Source of the DNA: Gekko japonicus | Taxonomy: Eukaryota | Assembly (NCBI RefSeq): GCF_001447785.1 | Contig: NW_015172565.1 | Span: 1,079,732-1,141,905 of the forward strand | DNA length: 62,174 nucleotides | Direction: 5' to 3' | Part shown: positions 184-61,539 of the stretch, one piece after another | How the letters are laid out: the number at the start of each line of letters is the position of its first letter | How positions within the stretch are numbered: position 1 is the stretch's first letter | The notes under the pieces: generated by a model | Database searches by the model: none | Told to the model about the DNA's origin: nothing | Seen by the model: the letters and a program-made list of their open reading frames with translations, nothing else | Translations under genes and position numbers: made by a program

Positions 184-2694
184 GAGAGGCGCTGCGCTCG
201 TCCGGGGGCGTGCAAAGGGCTTGGGCTGGAGGGGACTGTCTGGTGCCTCCCATCATTTCCTCGCCCCCACCCTGGCCGCCCACTCACCAGAGCTCCCCCC
301 GACGGGCCCCCTGGCCCCCGGGAGGAGGCGCGCTGGAAAGCGGAACCTGCGGGGCACGGGGAGGAGTTTGCATAGAGCTCTGGCCTCGTCGGCTCCTCCT
401 GCCAGCCTGTGGGTGCCGGGGTGGCTGGGCGGGGAAGGGAGCCTCACGCCTCAGCCTGCTGGGCTCTTCCAAGCGAGTCCCGGCCGCTCCCCGCCTCTTC
501 GGGCCACGCCACCGGGCTGAGGGAAGGAGGGAGGGGAGGGAGGAGGGAGAAGCGCCCCCCGGCCCCGGGGGAGGCTGAGCCCCTTCCTGAAAGGTTCGGG
601 AGGGTCTGACGCTCCTCAGCCCCCCTGCAGATTACGCGCCTGCAGCCACCTCACCTTTTCTTATGATAGGGCTTCCTCTGTCTTCATGCTCCATACCCAA
701 ATTCAGAGGACAAAAAATTTCTGCCTTTCAGAGTTATACCAAAAGAGAGCTATGATGGGGAGTTGGCATGATCTCATAGAAATACTGAACCAGGGGGTCT
801 TTGGCTCATTCCTCTGCTCTGACTTCACTAAGTAGTCTTGCAAAGTCATTCTCAGTGGTCTGTGGGGGGGGGGGGGAGGATAAAATGGCCTTCCTCAGAT
901 GATGAATGAAGCAAACATTGTACACATATTGCATGCAAAGATAGTGATCCTCTTGGCACAACAGCTAGGTTTTGAGTACTGATCATACTGACCGCTTGTT
1001 AAAGATGTTTTTCTTCCCAGGGTTTTTCATGGGGAGTCAGGGTTGCCAGGTCTGGGTTGGGAAAGACCTGGAGATTTGGGGGGGGGGGCTGGGGAGGACA
1101 GGGTTTAGGGAAGGGAGGGACCTCAGCATTGTGTAATGCCATAGAGTCCACCCTCCAAAGCAGCCATTCCCCACCCCCTGGGGAACTGATTTGGATTATC
1201 TGGAGGTCAATTGTAATAGTGGGATGTCTCCAGGTACCCCCTGGAATTTAGCAACACTGTGGGTGTTGTGAGATTCTGGATGTGGGTGTGTGGCTGCACG
1301 TGTTCTGTGAAAACGTGTTTACCCATGTCACCCACGCTCTCTCCCCTCAGTTCGTGTGTGTCTCCTGAGTGTCGCCCCTTACCAAGGCAGATGTGCAAGC
1401 TTGGAAATCACTAGGTCTCTTCTTAAAATAAAACTAATCTTTATTAAAAGGAACATTCAAAGATTTGTCTGGCAAGATGACCGCAAGACGCTATGTCAGC
1501 CTGCCACACAGTAGAATCCTATTTCCTAAACATTGATAGAATATACAGAAAATAAATATGCAGCAAAGTTTTCCCCACCCCATGCATGCGCCAACGAGAG
1601 GCCTCTCTGACTGACTCCTATCGGAGTCAGCTGAGGTCTGTTGTAACCAACCAATATTTATACCCAAGATCAAAGAGGTCTCTTAATAACTGGATTACAG
1701 TTAAAATTTAACACTTAGAAGTTGGAATTGTCTTGCAGGAAATTTGTTTCCCTTCCTTTGTTCACATTCCAAAGGATCAATACAGCGTCATTGTTTCGTC
1801 CAGGTGTTCCCCAATCAGGGGAAATAAACTGTCCTTTGAAGTTATCAGAGAGCTGCTTCAAAGTTATCTTCTAAGGGGAAGGTGGGGTATGTGAAATCCT
1901 GTTGCCTATATTGGATTAGGGTCTGTCATTGTCCAGCTGCAGTTGTTATCACTTTTAAATTGTGAGTCCCACACTTATAGAGACTTATATTGATTCAAAC
2001 AAACTGTCCTTTTGGTGTTAGTGTTTAGATAAATCAGGGTTTGTTTGAACTTCTGTTTCCCATGGATTTTGCATTGTGGATTTGAAGTCTACCAGCTGTA
2101 CAAATGGTCACCCATTTTATTGCAAAGGGAATTGGGGGTCTCACACCTTTGGCTGGGAATGGAATGCGTTACGTCCTTGCGTGTGTGACCAAGAAAGAGA
2201 TCCTTCTGGGAAGAAAGGGCTTGCAAAAGAATCATGGGCTTTGATTCAAACAGGCCTAGCAAGGGCAGAGACAAAAATATGTATACTATTTTGGTTCATT
2301 TTAAACCCAAACCTTCTATATTTCTAATATTTCTTACCACAGTGGGGAGAGCAGTCATCACAGGCCGTGGAAAGGCCTCAGCTATGTGCATGCAGCTATC
2401 TCATGGTGAAACCACACTGTTTGCCAGAGCCATCTCATATGGATAGAGTTTTTTAAAAAGAAAGATGATAGTGATCAGCAAGAAGGCGGCTTACGTCTTC
2501 GCTGCTCACTAGAAAGAGGACAATTAATTAGGAACACCAGAAATATTGGTCATATCTATGTAGACTCAATAGGGTTTACCCCATCTCGCTACACTAGTGC
2601 GTAAGGACTTGTCTATCCCCCCAGATAGGCTAGCTCCCAGAATGCATGACTGCCTTTCTAAATGCCCTTCTTTTTTCTGTCTCCTGTCAAGGTC

Positions 2695-3462
2695 ATGGAG
2701 GGCAATCGTTTCCCTTACACACATGATCCTACAGATTGCTTTCGTGATATACTGCTGGACCAGAGAAGCAGGCTCCGTGAGCACATAAAGAGCCTTCGTG
2801 AGATTTCACACAGAATCAACAGACTGCACAGGTGGTCTCTGATAGCCAACCTCACAGGGAGTTCTTTAAGTGTGGCGGGAGCCATCACTGCCATTGTGGG
2901 ACTGTCCTTGAGCCCCGCTACACTAGGAGCATCTCTTTTGGCCTCTGGTGTGGGTTTAGGAGTGGCCGCCGCAGGCGGAGCGGTCACTGTGACTTCCGAT
3001 CTCTCCTTAGTGCTGTCCAATTCCCGAGAGGTGAAAAGGGTGAAAGAGATTGCAGCAACCTGCCACAGCCAGATGAGAGAAATAATGAACTGCCTGGAAT
3101 TCCTACACCGTCGTCAGGGCCCAACGGACCCTACTTTACTGCAGGCTGAGAACAAGGCTTCAGTCTTGCTGTACAACTCCATCTGCTTCATGGTCTTCTG
3201 TGGCTCGCAGGGCTTCCTGGTCCCAGAGCACACAGAAGAGGTGACGAAAGTGAGCCATGCTGTTCTCAAGGCCAAAGTCCAGAAGCTGGCAGAAAACCTG
3301 GAAGCCTGCACAAGACCCATGGATGAAATCTGCAGACTTTTAAAGAACAGGAAAGAATTCTCCCTGAAGAGAAAAACACCAGTGCTCTGGGATGTCAGGG
3401 GTCAGCATCACCTTTCAGCAGCAAATGCTTCCCTTGAGAAAAGCCTGGAAAACAGGGACTAG
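2695..3462 (+). CDS. APOLD1: Apolipoprotein L domain-containing protein 1, main coding exon
   Basis: ORF 2662-3462 encodes the ApoL-type hydrophobic segment SLIANLTGSSLSVAGAITAIVGLSLSPATLGASLLASGVGLGVAAAGGAVTVTSDLSL. A polypyrimidine tract plus AG acceptor lies at 2668-2691, so the exon starts at 2692 (GTC ATG GAG). It sits immediately upstream of DDX47, as in other amniotes. A short upstream exon may add 1-2 codons but was not located. Confidence 0.93.
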   Translation: MEGNRFPYTHDPTDCFRDILLDQRSRLREHIKSLREISHRINRLHRWSLIANLTGSSLSVAGAITAIVGLSLSPATLGASLLASGVGLGVAAAGGAVTVTSDLSLVLSNSREVKRVKEIAATCHSQMREIMNCLEFLHRRQGPTDPTLLQAENKASVLLYNSICFMVFCGSQGFLVPEHTEEVTKVSHAVLKAKVQKLAENLEACTRPMDEICRLLKNRKEFSLKRKTPVLWDVRGQHHLSAANASLEKSLENRD

Positions 3463-13028: not shown

Positions 13029-13870
13029 CTCAAAGCGAATAGTATGAAAGCCAAGATTCAGAAGACTAGTCATGACAGCCTGAGGGACGTAAGCCGGGCC
13101 GAGGGAGGGCGTCTACTCCGTGCCGGTTTGAGCGCCAGGAGAAAAACAACAGCCGGTGAACCTCCGGGTACGAAGCCAGAAGCCGAAGAACATCAGCCTC
13201 CACCAGGGTGCTGGTAGGCTGCCCCAACCCCCTTCCAGAATGTGGCCATAGTTAAGGATAAAATCATTATTAGCACTCCTCAATGTGAACCGCCCAGAGA
13301 CCCCTACGGGGGTTAGGGCGGTATGCCAAGTCAAATTATTAAATTAAATATTAAATTAATGTCTGGTTTACCATCAGCCAGAAATTAATGGGAGCACAAG
13401 CCAGACAAGATCATGGAGAATGATGAAACAAAGGTTCTTTGGTACTTCCGATTGCAAGCAGATAAACACCTGGAGCATAACACACCTGATATCACAATTG
13501 TAGAAAAATTGAGAAATAGGGCTTGGATAATTGACATTGCAATCCCAGGAGACAGCAGAATAGAAAAGAAAGAACAGGAGAAGATCACAAAAAACAAAAG
13601 CTACGAATAGTGTTAAAGTGCCTCTGGGAGAAGAAAGTTACCATTGTGTCAGTTCTCACTGGAGCCCTTGGAGCAGTGCTAAAAGTCTCTGCAAACACTT
13701 GGACATTCTGGGCATTGAGCTAATAACACCAGCTCAACTCCAGAAGACAGTGTTACTTGGAACAGCAAGAATCCTGCGAAGATACATCTGCAATTCCCAA
13801 GAACTTGGCTAGATCTTGAATTGTAGAACACCATCTACCAGTCAAATACTTGACTGTGACAATACTAACT

Positions 13871-16056
13871 AGCCATGCCTTTAATAAAGAAAAAACGGAA
13901 GTACTTAATTTAGGCTTAGGATTTGTATTCACTCCTACCTACCATGCGTTCCAGACAAGAATTGATATCTTTAAACTTGTAAGACTTATAAAATTGAAAA
14001 CTATGTTCGAAGGAGCGACCTTAACAGAGATAAATCCATTTAAAGTCAGGTCCCAATTTAATCCTACAATTTACGATCCGTCCATAGTAGTATTCGAACG
14101 CAGGGTATTGGAAGATATATCAATTCTGGAACAAAAAGGTCCAAACAGAAAATTTAATATGTCTAAAAAACAGTGGGATAGTCTCATAGAACTCACTAAC
14201 ATACAGGAGATTGTCATTAAAAATGTGGACAAAGGCGGGGCTATCGTTATCCAAGATAGGGAAAAATATCTAACAGAGGCCAATAGGCAGTTAGACAACA
14301 TGGATTGTTATAGAAAAATAGAATATGACCCGACCAATGAAGTCAGCAGAATTATATCAACCACTGTCAATGAGGGACTTTTGTATGATTACATTGATAT
14401 ACAAACAGCTCAGTACCTTTGTAAAAAATACTATAGAGTGCCAATTTTTTACGTGCTTCCTAAAATTCATAAACCCGGTGATCCCCCACCGGGCAGACCT
14501 ATAGTATCGGGGATAAACTCTCAACTAGAGCCCCTATCCAAATATGTTGACTCCTTTCTGAAACCAGCAGTGGTCAAATTAGAATCTTATATTAAGGACA
14601 CCCGCAGTTTTATCCAACTGGTGGAAAACAGAGAGATCCCCCGGGAGCAGTCCTTATGACTATGGACGTGGGAGCCCTATATACAAATATCCCTCATGAA
14701 GAGGCCAGATTGGCCCTGCTCACCACATTGGAAAAAAGGTCCTGCAAGATTCCCCCCACTCATTTTCTTATTGATTTGGTGGATATTATTTTTGAAAAAA
14801 GTTTTTTTCGTTTTGGGTTTGACTTTTACTTTCAAATTAAAGGGGTAGCCATGGGGAGTTCTTTTGCACCGAGTGTGGCTAATTTATTTATGGGTTTTTT
14901 TGAGGAACGGTGGATCACAGATAGGAATGTAAACCCTTTTTTCAACAATATTATTTTATATAAACGTTATATTGATGATTGTTTTTTGATTCTAGATGAT
15001 ATTAATGCAGTTGAACCTTTTTTCCAATGGGTTAATACTATACATACATCCATTAAATTTACCCATGAAGCCAGCCTCTTTGAGATTAATTATTTAGATA
15101 CCACAGTCTTTATTAGTGATGGCAAATTGGCTGTTCGTCCATTCCACAAAAAAACTGATAAAAACTCCATTTTACACTTTGAGTCGCACCACATCAGTCA
15201 TTTAAAATATAATTTACCATACAGTCAATTCCTTAGGATCAAACGAAATTCGACCTTAAAGGAAGACTTCAATAAGGAAGCAGACAGACTCACGGAACAG
15301 TTTCAAAATAGAGGATATCCGGATTGGGTTATTAGGAACGCCCGTTTTAGAGCGGAGCGCCGGGACCGAAAAGACCTGTTTCAAAGCAGTAATGAACATC
15401 CCCATGATGGTAGACTCAATTGGGCACTAGAATTTACAAGCAAGGCGTTTGACATCAAGACTATAATCATGAAACACTGGCATATTCTCAGTGACATTGC
15501 GGCATGTCAGTTACCTTTGAGAGTAGGCTTTAGAAGAACACAAAGCATCAGAGACAAGTTAGTTAGGGCTGATGCCTTTAAGATTCAGGAAGCCGGAGAA
15601 GACCCGATCGGACATTGCAGCTGCGGTAGATGTGCTGCGTGTCCATTAATGACGGAGATTGACACTTTGGAGTTTCCGGATATTAACTTTAAAGAACCCA
15701 TGCATCATTTCTCATCCTGCGCTACAAAATCGGTCGTCTACCTATTGACATGTGCCTGCAACCTGAGATATGTCGGGCAAACATCAAGAGCATTAAGGAC
15801 CCGTGTCCTGGAACATAAATCCAAAATTAAGCATAAACACCTCACTGCTTCTATGGTGCAGCATTTTGAGGAAACCAATCATGGCCCGAGTGATTTTAAA
15901 TGCCTCGTATTGGAAGTAGTAAAAAGTAAACCATTCACCAGTATGGATAAGAAAAAATTATTACTTCAAAGAGAGGCGTTCTGGACGTTCAAACTCCAGA
16001 CAGAACAACCCAGGGGCTTGAATGCCGCATTGGATTTATCATGCTTCTTAGGTTAA
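13871..16056 (+). pseudogene. PLE ORF2: reverse transcriptase + Cys/His linker + GIY-YIG endonuclease, one frameshift near 14640
   Basis: PLE motifs DKGGAIV, FYVLPKIHK, PGRPIVS, MDVGALYTNI, GVAMGSSFAP, RYIDD, YLD, linker CSCGRCAAC, and VVYLLTC..YVGQTSR.LRTR..EH. Adding one C to the C-run at 14638-14642 restores EIPPGAVLMTMDV and a continuous frame. Confidence 0.93.
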
Positions 16057-16612
16057 TAAGATCACTTTTTTGATTGTTAAAAGTACGTATATGATGAAAA
16101 TGTTTTGAGTCTTTCTGGGCGATTCTTGGATAATAAATAAATATCGACTAGACATATTGTATTGGATTAAGGAGCTTAGAGACTAATGGTCAGAAAAATG
16201 TTTAAGCACTTTGGATTTGTTGGTAAGGTGGCCTCTCAGCATCAAACATCATGTGATTTAGAGAGTAGGATATAAGGAACTTTTTTGCAGTCATGTATTA
16301 AGATTTACTATCCGGTAAGAATGTTGTGAATTAGTGAGAGCTGTTCTCAGCCGATATAGGTAAGAAAGAAATTAAAAAATAATTGTTTGTATTATATGGA
16401 GGGATTGAGGTTATGCTGTAACTATGCATGATAGTTTTTATAAATATTTTATTTCTGTCTTCAGAAAACTTACACTTATTGTTGGAAACATTGAAGTAAA
16501 GAATAACACTACAAACTGTATGTATACATATAATTGTACTTTAGTGAAAAAATTGTTAATCTGTAAATGTTGTATTTAATAATTCCTGTTAAAAAATCTA
16601 TCAATTTCTATT

Positions 16613-16678
16613 AGGATGGTTGAGAAAGACATCCAGTCGAAACGAACATCTGTAAACTCGAGAGAGTTCGTACTTTTG
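16613..16678 (+). ncRNA. Candidate type I hammerhead ribozyme (U3-A8 core variant) in the PLE
   Basis: Core TTGAGAA (16620-26) + A, stem II GAC-atcca-GTC, GAAA, stem III ACGAAC/GTTCGT, and cleavage triplet GUA (16670-72). Stem I is weak. Confidence 0.6.
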
Positions 16679-16884
16679 AATACTTGTGAATTAAACATCC
16701 TTGTCATCTTGGATTGGGCTTCTGTCTTCGGATGAAGTTCACCTATTGATACTAAGTAAAATCAACATAACTTATTTACGTGCCTTTAATAGCATGAACT
16801 TGTACAGTAATTTTTTCGTGTGTAATTGACTTTAATTACTGGGTCCATTTGTGTTATCTTGTTCATAAGTCTTAGATTGGGACC

Positions 16885-17599
16885 ATGTCATCATTAAATC
16901 AGAGATTTGCTTTCTCTGAAGAAGATAAGCAGAGAATTTTGGGGAATTGTTCAGGACTTAAGAGAGATAGCAGGAGTCCATCTGATTGGACCCAACTGGA
17001 CTTTCTTAACAAAAAAGAAATTCGGATGTCACTCCATGCGGCATCCCTTACTGAGTATTGTAAAGCTGACCTCATTCCACGGGGTCTTAGACTTCAAAAG
17101 GGACCCGCTATGTTTCTTAACAAGGAAGAGTTCAAAAGTAAATGGATAGCCATTCTTAATAAGTGTTCCTTTGATTTAATGTTACTAGTCATTGATGAGG
17201 CTTCTCGTGAGGCTACCACCATACAAGAAGAGATTAAAGAAGTGGAAGATAAACTCAAAAAATCGTTCAGCCAGGAAGAATTTGAAAACAGACTTAAGAC
17301 TTTAGAAGAGGATCTTAGAAATTGAACTTAAAAAATTAGACAGGGATCAGAGGGACTATACCCTTAACAGGGTCTACAAATGGTGCTCACCGAACGCCAA
17401 TGCTCCCATTAAAAGAGTATCTTGGGCCGATGCAAGGGACCCGATATCCGATATGGATACAACTGAAGCCGAAGATTCGGCAACAACTTCGGGTGAAGAA
17501 AGTTACAATAGGAGACCTTTTTTAGAAAGGAGAGCAAAAAACAGAAAGGAAGGGGGACCATCACAAGGATACAAACGAGGCAAGAAGAAGAACTGGTAG
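16885..17599 (+). pseudogene. PLE upstream ORF1 (helical/coiled-coil-like, acidic then basic C-terminus), disrupted near 17320
   Basis: MSSLNQRF...LHAASLTEYCKADLIPRGLR...WIAILNKCSFDLMLL. After an apparent deletion or frameshift near 17320 it continues as ELKKLDRDQRDYTLNRVYKW...RRPFLERRAK...KKKNW* (TAG at 17597-17599). Confidence 0.75.
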
Positions 17600-17699
17600 T
17601 TAATTTGTCTAGCCATGCCTTTAATAAAGAAAAAACGGAAGTACTTAATTTAGGCTTAGGATTTGTATTCACAATACTAACAACAACAATAACTTTGTC

Positions 17700-18370
17700 C
17701 CCATGCACAGTCTAAAAACACACTCACCAGACCTAACAATACTACCCAGACCATCTCAGGTTCATTCACTTGCTCATCTTCCAACATTACGTACTCCATC
17801 AAGTGTCAACAGTGCCCTTCTACTCTCTAACATCAGCACAAGCCAGTCCCTACGTGAAAGAACAAATGGAATAAATCTGACATTAAATATCACAGTACTC
17901 AGGAACCAGTGGGAGAACATTTTAATCTTCTAGGACATTCCATTTCTGACCTAAGAGTGGCAGTTCTTCTACAAAGTTCTAACACAGATTACAATCTGAG
18001 TTCGTGGAACTAGAATTCATTAACAAGTTCAGGACAATGGACTTCCCATGGCTGAACAGGGACACAGGATTCTTATTTCTTTACAGATGCTAATTTTCTG
18101 GACTTCCCACCTCTATGCATATCTTGTTGCCCTTATTCAGCTGCTTACATTATGCTTTATACCTCCACATCCTGACTCCATCTGGCTCTTCTTAGTAATA
18201 CAACAGTCACTTCTCCCACTGTCTGGATATAAGGATCGATGTATCTGACAAAGCGAGCTTTAACTCATGACTGCTTATACCCTGGAAAATTTTGTTGGTC
18301 TGTAAGGTGCTACTGGACTTGAATTTTGTTCTGGTACTACAGACTAACATGACTACTCGTGTAGTAACTA
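17700..18370 (+). mobile_element. Older, degenerate PLE 3' fragment (GIY-YIG remnant + tail with decayed hammerhead)
   Basis: Translates to TISGSFTCSSSNITYSIKCQQCP...SQSLRER...PVGEHFNLLGHSISDLRVAVL. The tail GTATCTGACAAAGCGAGC..CTCATGA..TAAGGTGCTAC..CAGACTAACATGACTAC is typical of sauropsid PLE ends. Confidence 0.75.
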
Positions 18371-40612: not shown

Positions 40613-40760
40613 TTAGTTGCTGTAGATTTTCCGGGTTGTGTGGCTGTGGTTTTGGCATTGTAGAAGTTCTACAAAGGTTCTACAATGCCAAGATCACGGC
40701 CACACCACCCGGAAAATCTACAGCAACTAATGAACTCCAGCCGTGAAAGCCTTTGAAAAT
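40613..40760 (+). mobile_element. PLE (Poseidon-like) tail with inverted 5' copy
   Basis: About 53-bp inverted arms at 40613-40665 and 40678-40730, then the tail CCGTGAAAGCCTTTGAAAAT. 12-bp TSD AAATGTATATTT at 40603-40614 and 40761-40772. Confidence 0.7.
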
Positions 40761-43417: not shown

Positions 43418-44754
43418 GGTAGGAGCAAGAACATGCTCTCCTCATGTAGTGACAAGGGTGGGTTGGGATGTTAAAGAGGCCTGGGAGCAAGCTTGAGCTC
43501 AGTGGTCCCTGTGGTGCTGACATACTTATAGGGACAACTTGCTTTGGTGGTGCAGGAGATGGTTACAGGGGTGCCTAATGCCTATGGTGGATACTGTTGG
43601 CTGAGTCCCAACCAAGTCCTTAGGAGCCTGGCAGTACTGCAACAGCTGCTCACCTTGGCTTGCTCCAGGGCAGCAGCCAATCAGGAATGATACTACATGC
43701 CAACAAACAAACCACTGTGATAAAATTGACAATGACACATTTAATAATTCTGTGAGTCTCCTAATGCACTCATTATCCTGTAAAAAGCATAGTTATGAGG
43801 AGTGGATAATTTAACTAAGAAGAAAATAAGAAGCTATACTGTTTTAAAAAAGAAACTAAGGTGAATCTAGAGGTTGGCACCTTCCAACTTTATAAGACTA
43901 CTCATGAGGAAGATTGCTGAAATGAGTGCAAAAACCGGTGTGCTCATCGAGGATATGACTATGTTGGACTTTGCTTTGCTTATGTCAGAATTCTCTAACT
44001 ATATTGTAAGATTAATAGCTTCACAAATTGATGCTCACAGAATTATTAAATGTGTCATTGTCAATTTTATCACAGTGGTTTGTTTGTTGGCATGTATCTG
44101 CACACTGTGACCCCTTTTCTGGCTTTTTAAATCAGGAATGATAAGCTAAAGGGAAATCAGTGGGCATTCCCTTCTCTTGTGTCTAATCCATGACATACAA
44201 ATGATGACTTCTTCTCCTCTAGTTTCTACACTCCTCTTGTTTCATGCTTTATTTTTTCACACCTTAATGCCAAGAACAACTGGTGGCAGTCACAACATGG
44301 CATTCACAAAAGGAGCCGTATAAATATACATCATTTTTACAAGAACGAGGAGAAATCTTTTCCAGTTCTATGGAACATTGTGGGACAGTTCTAGAAGTGG
44401 AATGTGTGGTTGTGTCGATAAGGTGAAATTAAGGAAGAAATAGCAAGTGCAATGGAATTCTTGAAACTGCAGTTCAGTTCCTCACACAGACTTTCCTCTC
44501 CAGCAGTTATAACTTGCTAGTCTTTAATCCTGTTAAGTTTAATTCAAGTACCATTGAATCCTTGTCAGCTGAAAAACACATGAGGCAAAGCAAAGCAAAA
44601 TGGCCATTAGGACATGCCACATAGCAGCAGGTGTCTTGTTTTCTAATTCTCAGAGGAAAGCCCCATCTCACCGTTTTGTGTGGCTTAGATAACACTCCTG
44701 TGTGAATATTCCTCTCACAGTAAATGGCCCTTTAGAAAAATAGAATTCAAATAT

Positions 44755-53419: not shown

Positions 53420-54279
53420 GTAGGGTTAGGCACAGATCACATTTTTGCAGTTCGGTTCAGGGTGTGAGGCTGAATCACAAACCAAACCACAAATCGATGC
53501 AATGGTTCATGACCTGAGCCAGTTCGTATCAGTTTGTGAGCCATTTAAACCCCTGATTTCTGTTTTTGGCAGGGAGCAGAAAGCAGTGGTTTAAATTGTT
53601 CTGAACCTTTTTGTCACGACCCAGGTGGGGTGTCACCTGATGCTGCCACCACTCTGGATTTAGGTTCCCGTGAGAAGGTCCAGAGTACCCTCCCAAGACC
53701 TTCAGACCTCCCTTTAGGCTGAATAACGGGCATGAGGACCAGGCAGAGTAAATAGGGCTGCCAAATGCAGCCGGGGGGGCGGGGAATCCCCCGTTTCGGA
53801 GCCCCGATTCCCGGCGCGCCGGAATCGGGGCCCGGGGGAAACCCCACCCCCGTGTGCGCGTCACCCGGAAGTGACGTCGCACGCTGGGGCTGGGGCCACG
53901 CGATTTGAGGGGAAAACAAAGAGTTTTCCCCTCAAATGGCAGCCATTTGAGGGGAAAACTCTTTGTTTTCCCCTCAAATCGCGTGGCCCCGTCCCCAGCG
54001 TGCGACATCACTTCCGGGTGATGTGCACGCTGCGCGCACTCGCGCGCTACGCGCGCACACACACACCCAGGATTGTCCGGGAGCCCCCCGCTGGGTGGCA
54101 CAGCCCAGATCATGACACTTTTAAACCAAACAAGCTGAGCTGTGTGGGAGCTCTTCACAAAGCACCAAGAACTGCATCAAAATTCATGGAAGTTCATGGC
54201 AGCTCTTCAGTCTGTGAACCATGAACTGCCCAAAATTTATGACGAACTTTAATTTGTGAGCTGGTTCGTGCCCATCCCT
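53420..54279. mobile_element. Nested non-autonomous DNA transposons
   Basis: Outer ends TAGGGTTAGGCAC / GTGCCCATCCCTA. An inner GC-rich element TAGGGCTGCCA...TGGCA (about 53753-54103) has a palindromic core. Confidence 0.6.
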
Positions 54280-59615: not shown

Positions 59616-61539
59616 CATCATTAGGGAAGGGTAAAGTCTTCGCCAAATTAGATCTGGCTCAGGCTTATCAGTAGCTGCCAGTAGACCCGAAGCCTGGCTC
59701 TAAGAAGGAACTGCAATCCTTCTTAGGTATTTTGAACTTCTATCACGCCTTCCTGCCACATAAAGCGTCAATAGCCGAACCATTCCATCACCTCCTCAAC
59801 AAGGGGGCGAAGTGGGAATGGGGCCCTCAGCACGACCAAACTTCTACTGCTATTAAATCATTGTTGTCATCCGATGCTGTCCTGACCCACTACGATGAAT
59901 CCAAGCGATTGGTGTTGGCGGCGGATGCGTCCCCGTATGGCGTGGGGGCTGTGTTGAGCCATGTGCTGGCAAACAGCAGGGAAGCGCCGATTGCTTATTA
60001 CTCTCGGACACTCATCGATAGGGAGGGGTTGGCGCTAGTGGCCAGCGTAAAAAAGTTCCATGACTTTTTATATGGAAGACCGTTTATTATGGTCACGGAC
60101 CACAAGCCCCTCCTTGGGATCTTTGCACCTGACAGCCAGACGCTCAATGTCTTGTCTGCGTGGATGTTGCGCTGGATGGTATTTTTATCCGCCTATGACT
60201 ATGTCCTGCAGCACCAGCCAGGAAAGAACATGGGGCATGCCGACGCCCGAAGCCGCTGCCCCCTGCCAGAACTGGACAGTGACCCTGCACCGGCTTTCAA
60301 GGTGATGGCCTTCGAAGAACTGGCCAAACCTCCGGTGCACGCGTCGGACGTTGCGACCGCCTCCGCCTGGGACCCCACCATCACCAAGGTTCTTAACTTG
60401 GTATGGAGGGGGTGGACGGTGGGGCATGTCGATGACTGTTTCAAGCCGTTTGCATCACGGCAAAATGAATTATCTATGCACCGGGAATGCTTACTCTGGG
60501 GTAACAGGGTGGTGGTTCCCCCTAAGTTACGGGACCAAGTATTAGAGACTCTGCACAAATGCCACCCCGGCATCGTGCGTATGAAGGGACTGGCCAGAGG
60601 GTATTTCTGGTGGCCGAAAATCGACACGGACATAGAGTCCTGGGTCCAGAAATGCCAGGAATGTCAGTTGTCTCGGCCTGATCCTCCACATGCACCGGTA
60701 ACCCCATGGGAAAAGTGTCACCGCCCCTGCTCCCACGTCCATGTAGATTTTGCGGGCCCTTTTCAGGGGCAGATCTTTTTAATTGCGCACAGCACGTCCG
60801 CACCATTCTACCCGGCAACCAACGGGCAAGCCGAAAGAATGGTGCGGACTACAAAGGAGACTTTGGGCCATTTGGTGCAGTGAAACTGGGGGCAGAAGGT
60901 GGCGTCTTTCCTACTGCATCAACACGTCACGCCGCACTCCATGACAGGGTGGAGTCCGGCGGAGCTGCTTATGGGTCGGCACCTAACGACATTGTTAGAC
61001 CGTATGCACCTGGACTTAACATCAGCCAGGCCACTGACCAACCCAGGGTGTTTGTTGAAGGGGAGAGTGTATATGCAAGGAACTACGGTAGCAGACACAA
61101 GTGGTTACCAGGCACAGTAAACCATGTCCTCGGGTCCCGCCATTATACTGTGAAAGTAAATGATGGTAGAGTAATGAAGTGCCATGTAGATCAGTTGCGC
61201 AAGTGGTGGGCTGACTCAGTCCCTGATTCCCTTCCCCAGGTGGCCGACGTACCTGACTCGGACAGTCAGGTAGAGTCTCTGGACTCCGAACAGACTGAGG
61301 GCTTCCAAGCACTGGAACCCCAGGCATAGTCGAGGGCGAGCAGAGCCATGGCTATGCGAATCGGCCACGGACACTCAGTCCCATAAGGAATCAAACCGAG
61401 CCCACTCACAGGGAGTCCGAAGCTCTTCCTCCTATCCCACCAACGGTAAATATCAGACGATCCCAACGGGTCAAGGAGCATCCTGCTTACTTGAAAGATT
61501 ATGGCTGTTCAAGGGTTGTCTCGTCTTAGGGGGGAGGAT

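Follow-up and report, generated by a model that had tools for sequence, protein, structure and literature searches.

The analysed window is a stretch of 62,174 nucleotides from Gekko japonicus (contig NW_015172565.1, positions 1,079,732 to 1,141,905 of the forward strand), and it contains a Penelope-like element (PLE) with a hammerhead ribozyme motif. The PLE is inserted in the AAC/AAT-rich tail of a non-LTR remnant (window 13340-13868, 17673-18060), which presumably is of the R4/Dong type; a decayed endonuclease fragment of another PLE follows the remnant. Elsewhere in the window, an intact 266-aa ORF at 2662-3462 with a Pfam ApoL match (E 1e-18) is probably an APOLD1-like exon, and LTR-retrotransposon pol fragments are located at 60089-61329 (Integrase_H2C2, E 3e-18). 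Long near-perfect inverted repeats lie at 40613-40730, 43694-44096 and 53854-54028, and two of the three give sub-threshold Rfam microRNA matches. The PLE unit is composed of the following parts:

13869..17672, + strand: the entire insertion, a Neptune-type PLE unit in circular permutation, in the order RT-EN, pLTR, ORF1
13869..16056, + strand: ORF of the reverse transcriptase (RT) and GIY-YIG endonuclease (EN), with Pfam RVT_1 and GIY-YIG matches, 5'-truncated
16057..16884, + strand: pseudo-LTR (pLTR), the 3' UTR of one unit plus the promoter and 5' UTR of the next
16885..17599, + strand: the next unit's ORF1, with a frameshift near 17300 in the window copy

The insertion comprises 3,740 nt plus a 64-nt identical terminal redundancy (13869-13932 = 17609-17672), and is flanked by an 11-nt direct repeat (13859-13869 / 17671-17681). 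The RT-EN ORF of the window copy has one frameshift near 14640-14660, and this copy, which has only one ribozyme and a frameshift in each ORF, is likely passive. In the intact relative L234 the RT frame has 763 codons and opens in -1 relative to ORF1, with a T TTT TTA slippery site at 17518-17524 (L234:2548-2554); the site agrees with a frameshift mentioned in a figure legend of PMC8557442. The ORF1/ORF2 overlap recurs across PLE families. The element has an RT whose C terminus bears a GIY-YIG endonuclease and, ahead of the latter, a C-x4-C-x2-C linker at 15616; a CX2-5CxxC Zn-finger linker before the endonuclease is given as a feature of Neptune and Nematis in the available part of PMC8557442. 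Judged by these domain features, from which the clade name is taken, the host element is a Neptune-type PLE.

Reverse transcription that goes once round a circular RNA, or that follows a tandem transcript, would be expected to give a permuted unit with a short overlap. Apart from the window itself (L289), the ORF1-bearing loci L289-L338 contained no second permuted copy of this kind. In a distant family two true tandem PLE arrays are present, and the permuted copy might also stem from a linear tandem template. The PLE arrays at L320:5919-6970 and L319 are young and head-to-tail, with a unit every 3,993 nt. Their ribozyme combines A3-G8 with a GCCGGC loop and a C-C mismatch within stem III; of the natural loci, they are the most suitable for testing two-copy cleavage.

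The ribozyme motif lies within the pseudo-LTR, at 16613-16678, and its parts and neighbours are as follows:

16613..16619, + strand: stem I 5' arm, GGATGG (16614-16619) pairing weakly with 16673-16677, or AGGATG pairing with the distal CATCCT (16696-16701)
16620..16627, + strand: catalytic box U3 U4 G5 A6 G7 A8 A9 plus an extra A (U3 = 16620, A8 = 16625)
16628..16638, + strand: stem-loop II of 3 bp (GAC/GTC, 16628-30/16636-38) with loop ATCCA; 1-3 bp in relatives
16639..16671, + strand: G12 A13 A14, stem III and the 18-nt loop III, with GAAA at 16639-42
16657..16662, + strand: self-complementary hexamer CTCGAG in loop III, a putative kissing/dimerisation signal
16670..16673, + strand: GUA triplet with the cut predicted from hammerhead geometry at A16672/C16673 (A17 = 16672)
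16696..16701, + strand: distal CATCCT, complementary to the splice-acceptor/stem-I arm, in 100/106 family copies
16715..16741, + strand: cUUCGg hairpin 3' of the ribozyme, its core kept in 87/106 family copies

An earlier note on this DNA had proposed a type I PLE hammerhead with a U3-A8 core, a 6-bp stem III, a cut after 16672 and a weak stem I. Every letter that it quoted was found at its given position, and the ATG at 16885, 212 nt after 16673, is the true start of ORF1, which encodes 245 aa in the intact copy L234. The core box TTGAGAA (16620-16626) is followed by an unpaired A at 16627, typical of PLE hammerheads, and all type I core positions are present (U4 G5 A6 N7, A9, G12 A13 A14, A15.1-U16.1, H17), with U3-A8 as the 3-8 Watson-Crick pair. 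Stem III is formed by ACGAAC (16642-47) and GTTCGT (16666-71). Stem I has a G-C and a G-U pair and then a mismatch; G10.1-C11.1 closes stem II and is absent from the predicted minimum fold, and the loop II letters are not conserved among relatives. The 5' half gave 109 genome matches for the family, against 0 for the reversed control, and the long stem-III module gave 1,431, against 3 for its control. The flagged stretch is thus a real type I hammerhead motif, beyond chance. The hammerhead model search that the same note had suggested came out blank: the Rfam scan of the whole window at E<=10 returned 18 hits, none from a hammerhead family, which suggests that the build of the window ribozyme is too atypical for the Rfam hammerhead models.

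Comparison across the genome showed that the core is kept while two of the stems are weak. The ribozyme was located downstream of 78/94 endonuclease matches at 63-100% identity; this search pattern preset part of the core, as did the stem-III-module, 3-8 class and loop-free patterns, and several of the misses are truncated or N-filled. Loci that had been chosen solely for their stem-III module had the 5' core at the correct spacing in 30/30 cases. At the free positions of 61 distinct sequences, the extra A and G10.1 are present in 60/61 and C11.1 in 56/61, and H17 is never G in the 57 distinct long forms. These copies are related by descent, and the counts overstate independent events. No ribozyme was found upstream of ORF1 at most of 40 distant loci, probably due to truncation, and a metagenome scan gave 48 partial matches and 0 full motifs.

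The stems differ in how well they are paired. An alignment of 17 rows shows pairing in 100% of cells for stem III, one pair of which has changed on both sides, in 88% for stem II (G10.1-C11.1 in 17/17) and in 48% for proximal stem I. Among the 57 distinct long forms, in which helix III has 6-8 bp and loop III 13-19 nt, the pair 15.4:16.4 covaries (A-U 36, G-U 13, G-C 8, never A-C). In distant families the letters of stem III are wholly different and the stem is kept; on this pattern of substitution, stem III is under selection. At the core, the stem I pair 2.1:1.1 is formed in only 17/57 long forms and 2.2:1.2 in 44/57. Stem II is cut to one or two base pairs in the families L144, L146, L152, L155, L168 and L172, which recalls engineered minizymes. 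Stems I and II are nearly lost across the long forms.

The core position 3 is variable. Of 1,617 long-form copies, in a tally that leaves out G3 with non-A8, 1,187 have U3-A8, 371 have C, G or A opposite A8, and 59 have a base other than A8 (44 of them C3-G8). Among 100 matches listed of the mismatch class, a hand count gave 36 C, 38 G and 26 A. The canonical C3-G8 pair occurs in three families (44 copies; 16/16 loci in a 125-copy and a 297-copy family), and the sum 1,617 + 125 + 297 amounts to about 2,000 long-form copies. The compensatory C3U/G8A core of the earlier note therefore holds for the U3-A8 pair itself and fails as a strict compensation, given the 371 mismatched copies. Whole families have spread with a G3-A8, C3-A8, A3-A8 or A3-G8 mismatch and an otherwise intact core (e.g. 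L140, L150, L184, L345). Hammerheads with a 3-8 mismatch are expected to cut poorly. No description of such multi-copy mismatch families was found in the available parts of the PLE hammerhead literature.

The best-conserved added feature of the long form is the palindrome in loop III. The hexamer is self-complementary, with G-U allowed, in 54/57 distinct long forms (mean 18 and maximum 28 in shuffled loops), and a perfect palindrome in 44/57 (mean 8, maximum 18). Its middle pair is U-A in 40, C-G in 13 and U-G in 4 of these forms and never C-A, and the 5' spacer takes 32 different sequences. The loop-free search gave 1,400 matches, a few of them listed twice, versus 0 for the control; among the matches listed, 90/98 distinct copies carry a self-complementary word by hand count, and 6/8 of those without it are a CpG-decay form. 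The 125-copy distant family has an unrelated stem III and CCCGGG, CCTGGG or CCTAGG at the same place (CCTAGG in 12/100 matches listed), the 297-copy distant family has TCCGGA, and the tandem distant family GCCGGC. These different palindromes mean that all three hexamer pairs change on both sides. Such covariation indicates that the self-complementarity of the hexamer is under selection. Since the hexamer is unable to fold on itself, pairing between two copies is the simplest reading, and the covarying hexamer likely mediates RNA-RNA dimerisation. The long stem III had been described as replacing the minimal palindrome; the long stem is there, but the palindrome persists within its loop.

Structure prediction gives a mixed picture. 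The folding gain of the hexamer over shuffled loops is modest (median -7.3 vs -5.6 kcal/mol, better in 36/57), and the predicted dimer of the window module reaches -40.9 vs 2 x -16.5 kcal/mol. In the window copy stem III is stable alone, with a pair probability of about 1. Monomer folds have stem III at P>0.8 in only 14/48 long forms; in most families the monomer folds thus do not favour stem III, and fold prediction alone lends no support. The core-compatible fold of the window lies 5.7 kcal/mol above the minimum, and 13 with proximal stem I forced. A ribozyme of the window type is therefore expected to be weakly active, as its stem I would be mostly open and its core-compatible fold would lie above the minimum.

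The earlier note had also proposed that GGATG pairs with CATCC in loop II as a switch or pseudoknot. When only 16605-16685 is folded, this pairing has a probability of 0.996; it drops to 0.004-0.10 once more downstream sequence is folded, and the distal CATCCT helix wins in the fold when its sequence is included. Moreover, loop II is ATCCA in only 4/106 family copies and GTTCA in 97/106. The loop-II switch was rejected on these copy counts and the extended folding. A general splice-controlled switch via the distal helix was also rejected: the helix is strong in the window family (z -1.7 to -4.2), but only 9/48 long forms pass z<-1.64, and it is thus not general.

The splice acceptor AG (16613-14) sits within the 5' arm of stem I, a feature that the earlier note had missed. 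The introns, start and ends of the transcript are placed as follows:

16300..16303, + strand: inferred transcription start, from the 5' ends of spliced copies
16360..16464, + strand: GT-AG intron 1 of the pLTR, precisely absent from spliced retrocopies
16518..16614, + strand: GT-AG intron 2, missing in 38/106 copies, its acceptor AG inside the stem-I 5' arm and five nt before U3
16806..16885, + strand: the PLE 'tail', where the 3' ends of copies fall in two clusters, putative RT start sites

Most of the 38 copies without intron 2, among 106 distinct family copies, also lack 16360-16464. The GT..AG joint of intron 2 is present in RNA reads on a sister family; these joints may derive from already spliced DNA copies. 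All 18 of the 38 spliced copies that reach far enough start at 16300-16308, whereas 42/45 intron-retaining copies extend upstream of the 16300 region. Transcription would then start near 16300, and the ribozyme would lie five nt into exon 3 within the 5' UTR of the mRNA. As mRNA copies begin at about 16300, the cut would fall about 171 nt into the spliced 5' UTR. In RNA viruses, hammerhead cleavage in the 5' UTR is reported to drive cap-independent translation (PMC13725137, available part); by analogy, a similar role for a ribozyme 212 nt before ORF1 may be regarded as a lead.

Copy ends do not support the claim that cleavage defines the monomer ends. The 3' ends lie at 16806-16840 in 36/106 copies and at 16850-16885 in 56/106, and hence 92/106 end 134-213 nt past the cut; no copy (0/106) ends at the predicted cut, the nearest being at 16680, and the cut site was rejected as a 3' copy boundary. 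Two-site tails of copy ends have been tied to internal RT initiation (PMC11167929, available part), and the ends of the window family match this. Among 5' junctions in the ribozyme region, 2-3 of 9 informative cases fall within 5 nt of the cut, without a clear peak; these 9 are what was left of 14 fragments without an intact 5' half after exclusion of five (two with N gaps, one with a point change, one with an internal deletion and one that begins further downstream). The spliced copies run from the promoter with the ribozyme intact, and 38/106 copies thus derive from spliced, uncut mRNA. With copy ends away from the cut, uncut RNA, spliced or not, is the usual insertion template. In 3-12% of three standard RNA-seq runs there was no end pile-up at the cut, a read type that is uninformative on cleavage, no read with the window allele at 16631, and no coverage of the ORF1 start.

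Within the window family, 85/106 copies carry a minimal form, with a loop-less palindromic AACGTT stem III, a GUU triplet, and a stem I of 6-7 bp with one compensatory change. In the DNA tree, which took 23 of 26 loci, the minimal forms group together (99/97) inside the long forms, and the window copy is placed as their sister (100/96); an earlier endonuclease protein tree of 108 columns had left the long/minimal order unsettled. All ribozymes found outside the minimal/window group are of the long form. By this tree, the minimal hammerhead arose once from the long form, and the window's subfamily is its sister. The nested position and the palindromic AACGTT stem III suggest that a dimer-forming palindrome was re-created when the loop was lost.

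Several of these features are known from other PLEs, as described in the available parts of the publications cited here. PLE hammerheads, the U3-A8 pair, intron overlap and dimer action have been reported (PMC4209133; PMC6765202; PMC7229834), and U3-A8 is a known natural covariant (PMC4209133; PMC3088659). The minimal hammerheads (min-HHR) of PLEs, including the U3-A8 Schistosoma Cercyon families (Cervera and de la Pena 2014, PMC4209133), share with the window ribozyme the pLTR site, the type I topology, the unpaired base between A9 and G10.1, the G10.1-C11.1 pair, the U3-A8 option, and a palindrome in the helix III region with a proposed dimer action. The derived AACGTT form of the window family is a textbook min-HHR. 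By contrast, the long form mirrors the published build: min-HHRs have a helix II of 7-8 bp, a helix I of 4-5 bp and an absent or tiny helix III (PMC4209133), whereas the long form has 1-3 bp, 0-2 bp at the core and 6-8 bp, respectively. With a 6-bp helix III and a 3-bp helix II, the window copy lies outside the min-HHR definition (0-2 bp helix III, long helix II), and 85/106 family copies have the short helix III.

Other systems are comparable in part. The Penelope hammerhead of Drosophila virilis (PMC4209133) also has an intron 3' end at the 5' end of helix I, spliced and unspliced forms and a very short helix I; it differs by a 6-bp helix II, a small palindromic helix III and one described 5' UTR intron, compared with two in the window family. 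Hammerheads of fungal and protist EN-minus PLEs are likewise of type I with a large helix III and no recognisable loop I-II contact, but they are described as stable active monomers (measured for Serpula), and no loop-III palindrome is described for them in the available part of PMC4209133. Poseidon of Anolis carolinensis (PAc; PMC11167929), also a reptile PLE, has ends set by two internal RT start sites and an uncut RNA substrate; it belongs to another clade, has a C3-G8 core, and is cut inside an ORF rather than 212 nt upstream of ORF1. Its ribozyme is protein-assisted and dispensable for insertion in vitro (PMC11167929). A long stem III with a loop hexamer is absent from the Fig. S3 rows compared in the Cervera 2014 supplement, and was not found in the available part of bioRxiv 10.64898/2026.07.22.740005. 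In a comparison that did not include Lünse et al. 2017, the likeliest to list such variants, no publication was found that describes a stem III of 6-8 bp whose loop has a covarying hexamer. Loop III also resembles the retroviral dimer initiation site: in both, the 5' UTR of a retroelement has a hairpin whose loop presents a purine-flanked self-complementary hexamer. In the PLE this hairpin is the ribozyme's stem III, and kissing is suggested by covariation only.

Taken together, we consider it rather probable that the locus carries a type I PLE hammerhead in which the hexamer of a long stem III pairs two copies, with slow and conditional cutting predicted. A transcript spanning two pLTRs, 3.74 kb apart, would bring the loop-III hexamers together in a kiss, which may slide into an extended stem-III duplex; minimal PLE ribozymes arrive at such a double-hammerhead state via their palindrome. 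Cleavage after A16672 would be occasional, probably helped by the protein of the element, and would trim or circularise read-through RNA rather than set insertion ends. There is precedent for PLE hammerheads acting as low-activity dimers (PMC4209133, available part). A point against a benefit of dimerisation is that the monomer already forms stem III, and the reason for a catalytic gain is not obvious. Moreover, C, G or A opposite A8 (371 copies) or A3-G8 is expected to cripple catalysis, and cutting may therefore be absent in those families.

An alternative, which we regard as unlikely, is that the clade retains the fold for RNA dimerisation or protein docking, in the manner of the retroviral dimer initiation site, with catalysis being vestigial. 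The 5' and 3' pLTRs, or two RNAs, would then pair and thereby guide template switching of the reverse transcriptase. In its favour, each of the four bases is found opposite A8, at position 3, among the multi-copy families, and the hexamer survives in all of these variant families; stem I is unpaired at the core in 40/57 and the inserted copies are uncut. However, U4-G5-A6, A9, G10.1-C11.1, GAAA and a non-G17 persist down to 63% endonuclease identity, the three families mentioned above keep the canonical C3-G8 pair, and the derived minimal form gained a covarying stem I, all of which argue against this alternative.

The model of the earlier note, an efficient monomeric hammerhead with a GGATG:loop-II switch and a cut defining the unit ends, is improbable. 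The stable stem III of the window monomer, the loop-II pairing that dominates in the short fold, and a permuted unit with a 64-nt overlap, the expected product of a circle closed at the ribozyme, are consistent with it; against it stand the 4/106 copies with loop-II CATCC, the loss of that pairing with downstream sequence, the positions of the 3' ends and 5' junctions, and the single occurrence of the permuted copy. It is very improbable that the hexamer is a palindromic site at the DNA or protein level (e.g. for a dimeric endonuclease or a host factor) rather than an RNA-RNA signal: most hexamer states are perfect palindromes with a central CG and the Anolis PLE protein is a predicted dimer (PMC11167929, available part), but the letters change freely between families with complementarity kept, imperfect states pairing only as sense-strand G-U number 11/57 vs 3 with C-A, and the hexamer always lies in the loop of an RNA stem.

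Beyond slow cutting in paired copies, a wider reading might be put forward tentatively. The Neptune stem III could be a retrovirus-style dimer initiation site, in which the kiss between pLTRs or RNAs is the selected function and catalysis is tuned down or optional; the minimal PLE hammerheads would be its collapsed descendants, and the permuted window copy the product of one round on a ribozyme-closed circle.

PLE hammerheads show poor cleavage in vitro, and in the one system tested insertion does not need them. The gecko genome allows the origin of a minimal hammerhead to be traced, and reveals a large class of ribozymes that was missed by the Rfam models in the window. It also offers a natural series of C3-G8, U3-A8 and mismatched 3-8 cores, long and minimal stem III, and spliced and unspliced copies, in which the self-complementarity of stem-loop III is the sole constant beside the core. 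With this series, dimerisation versus cleavage becomes directly testable with short RNAs.
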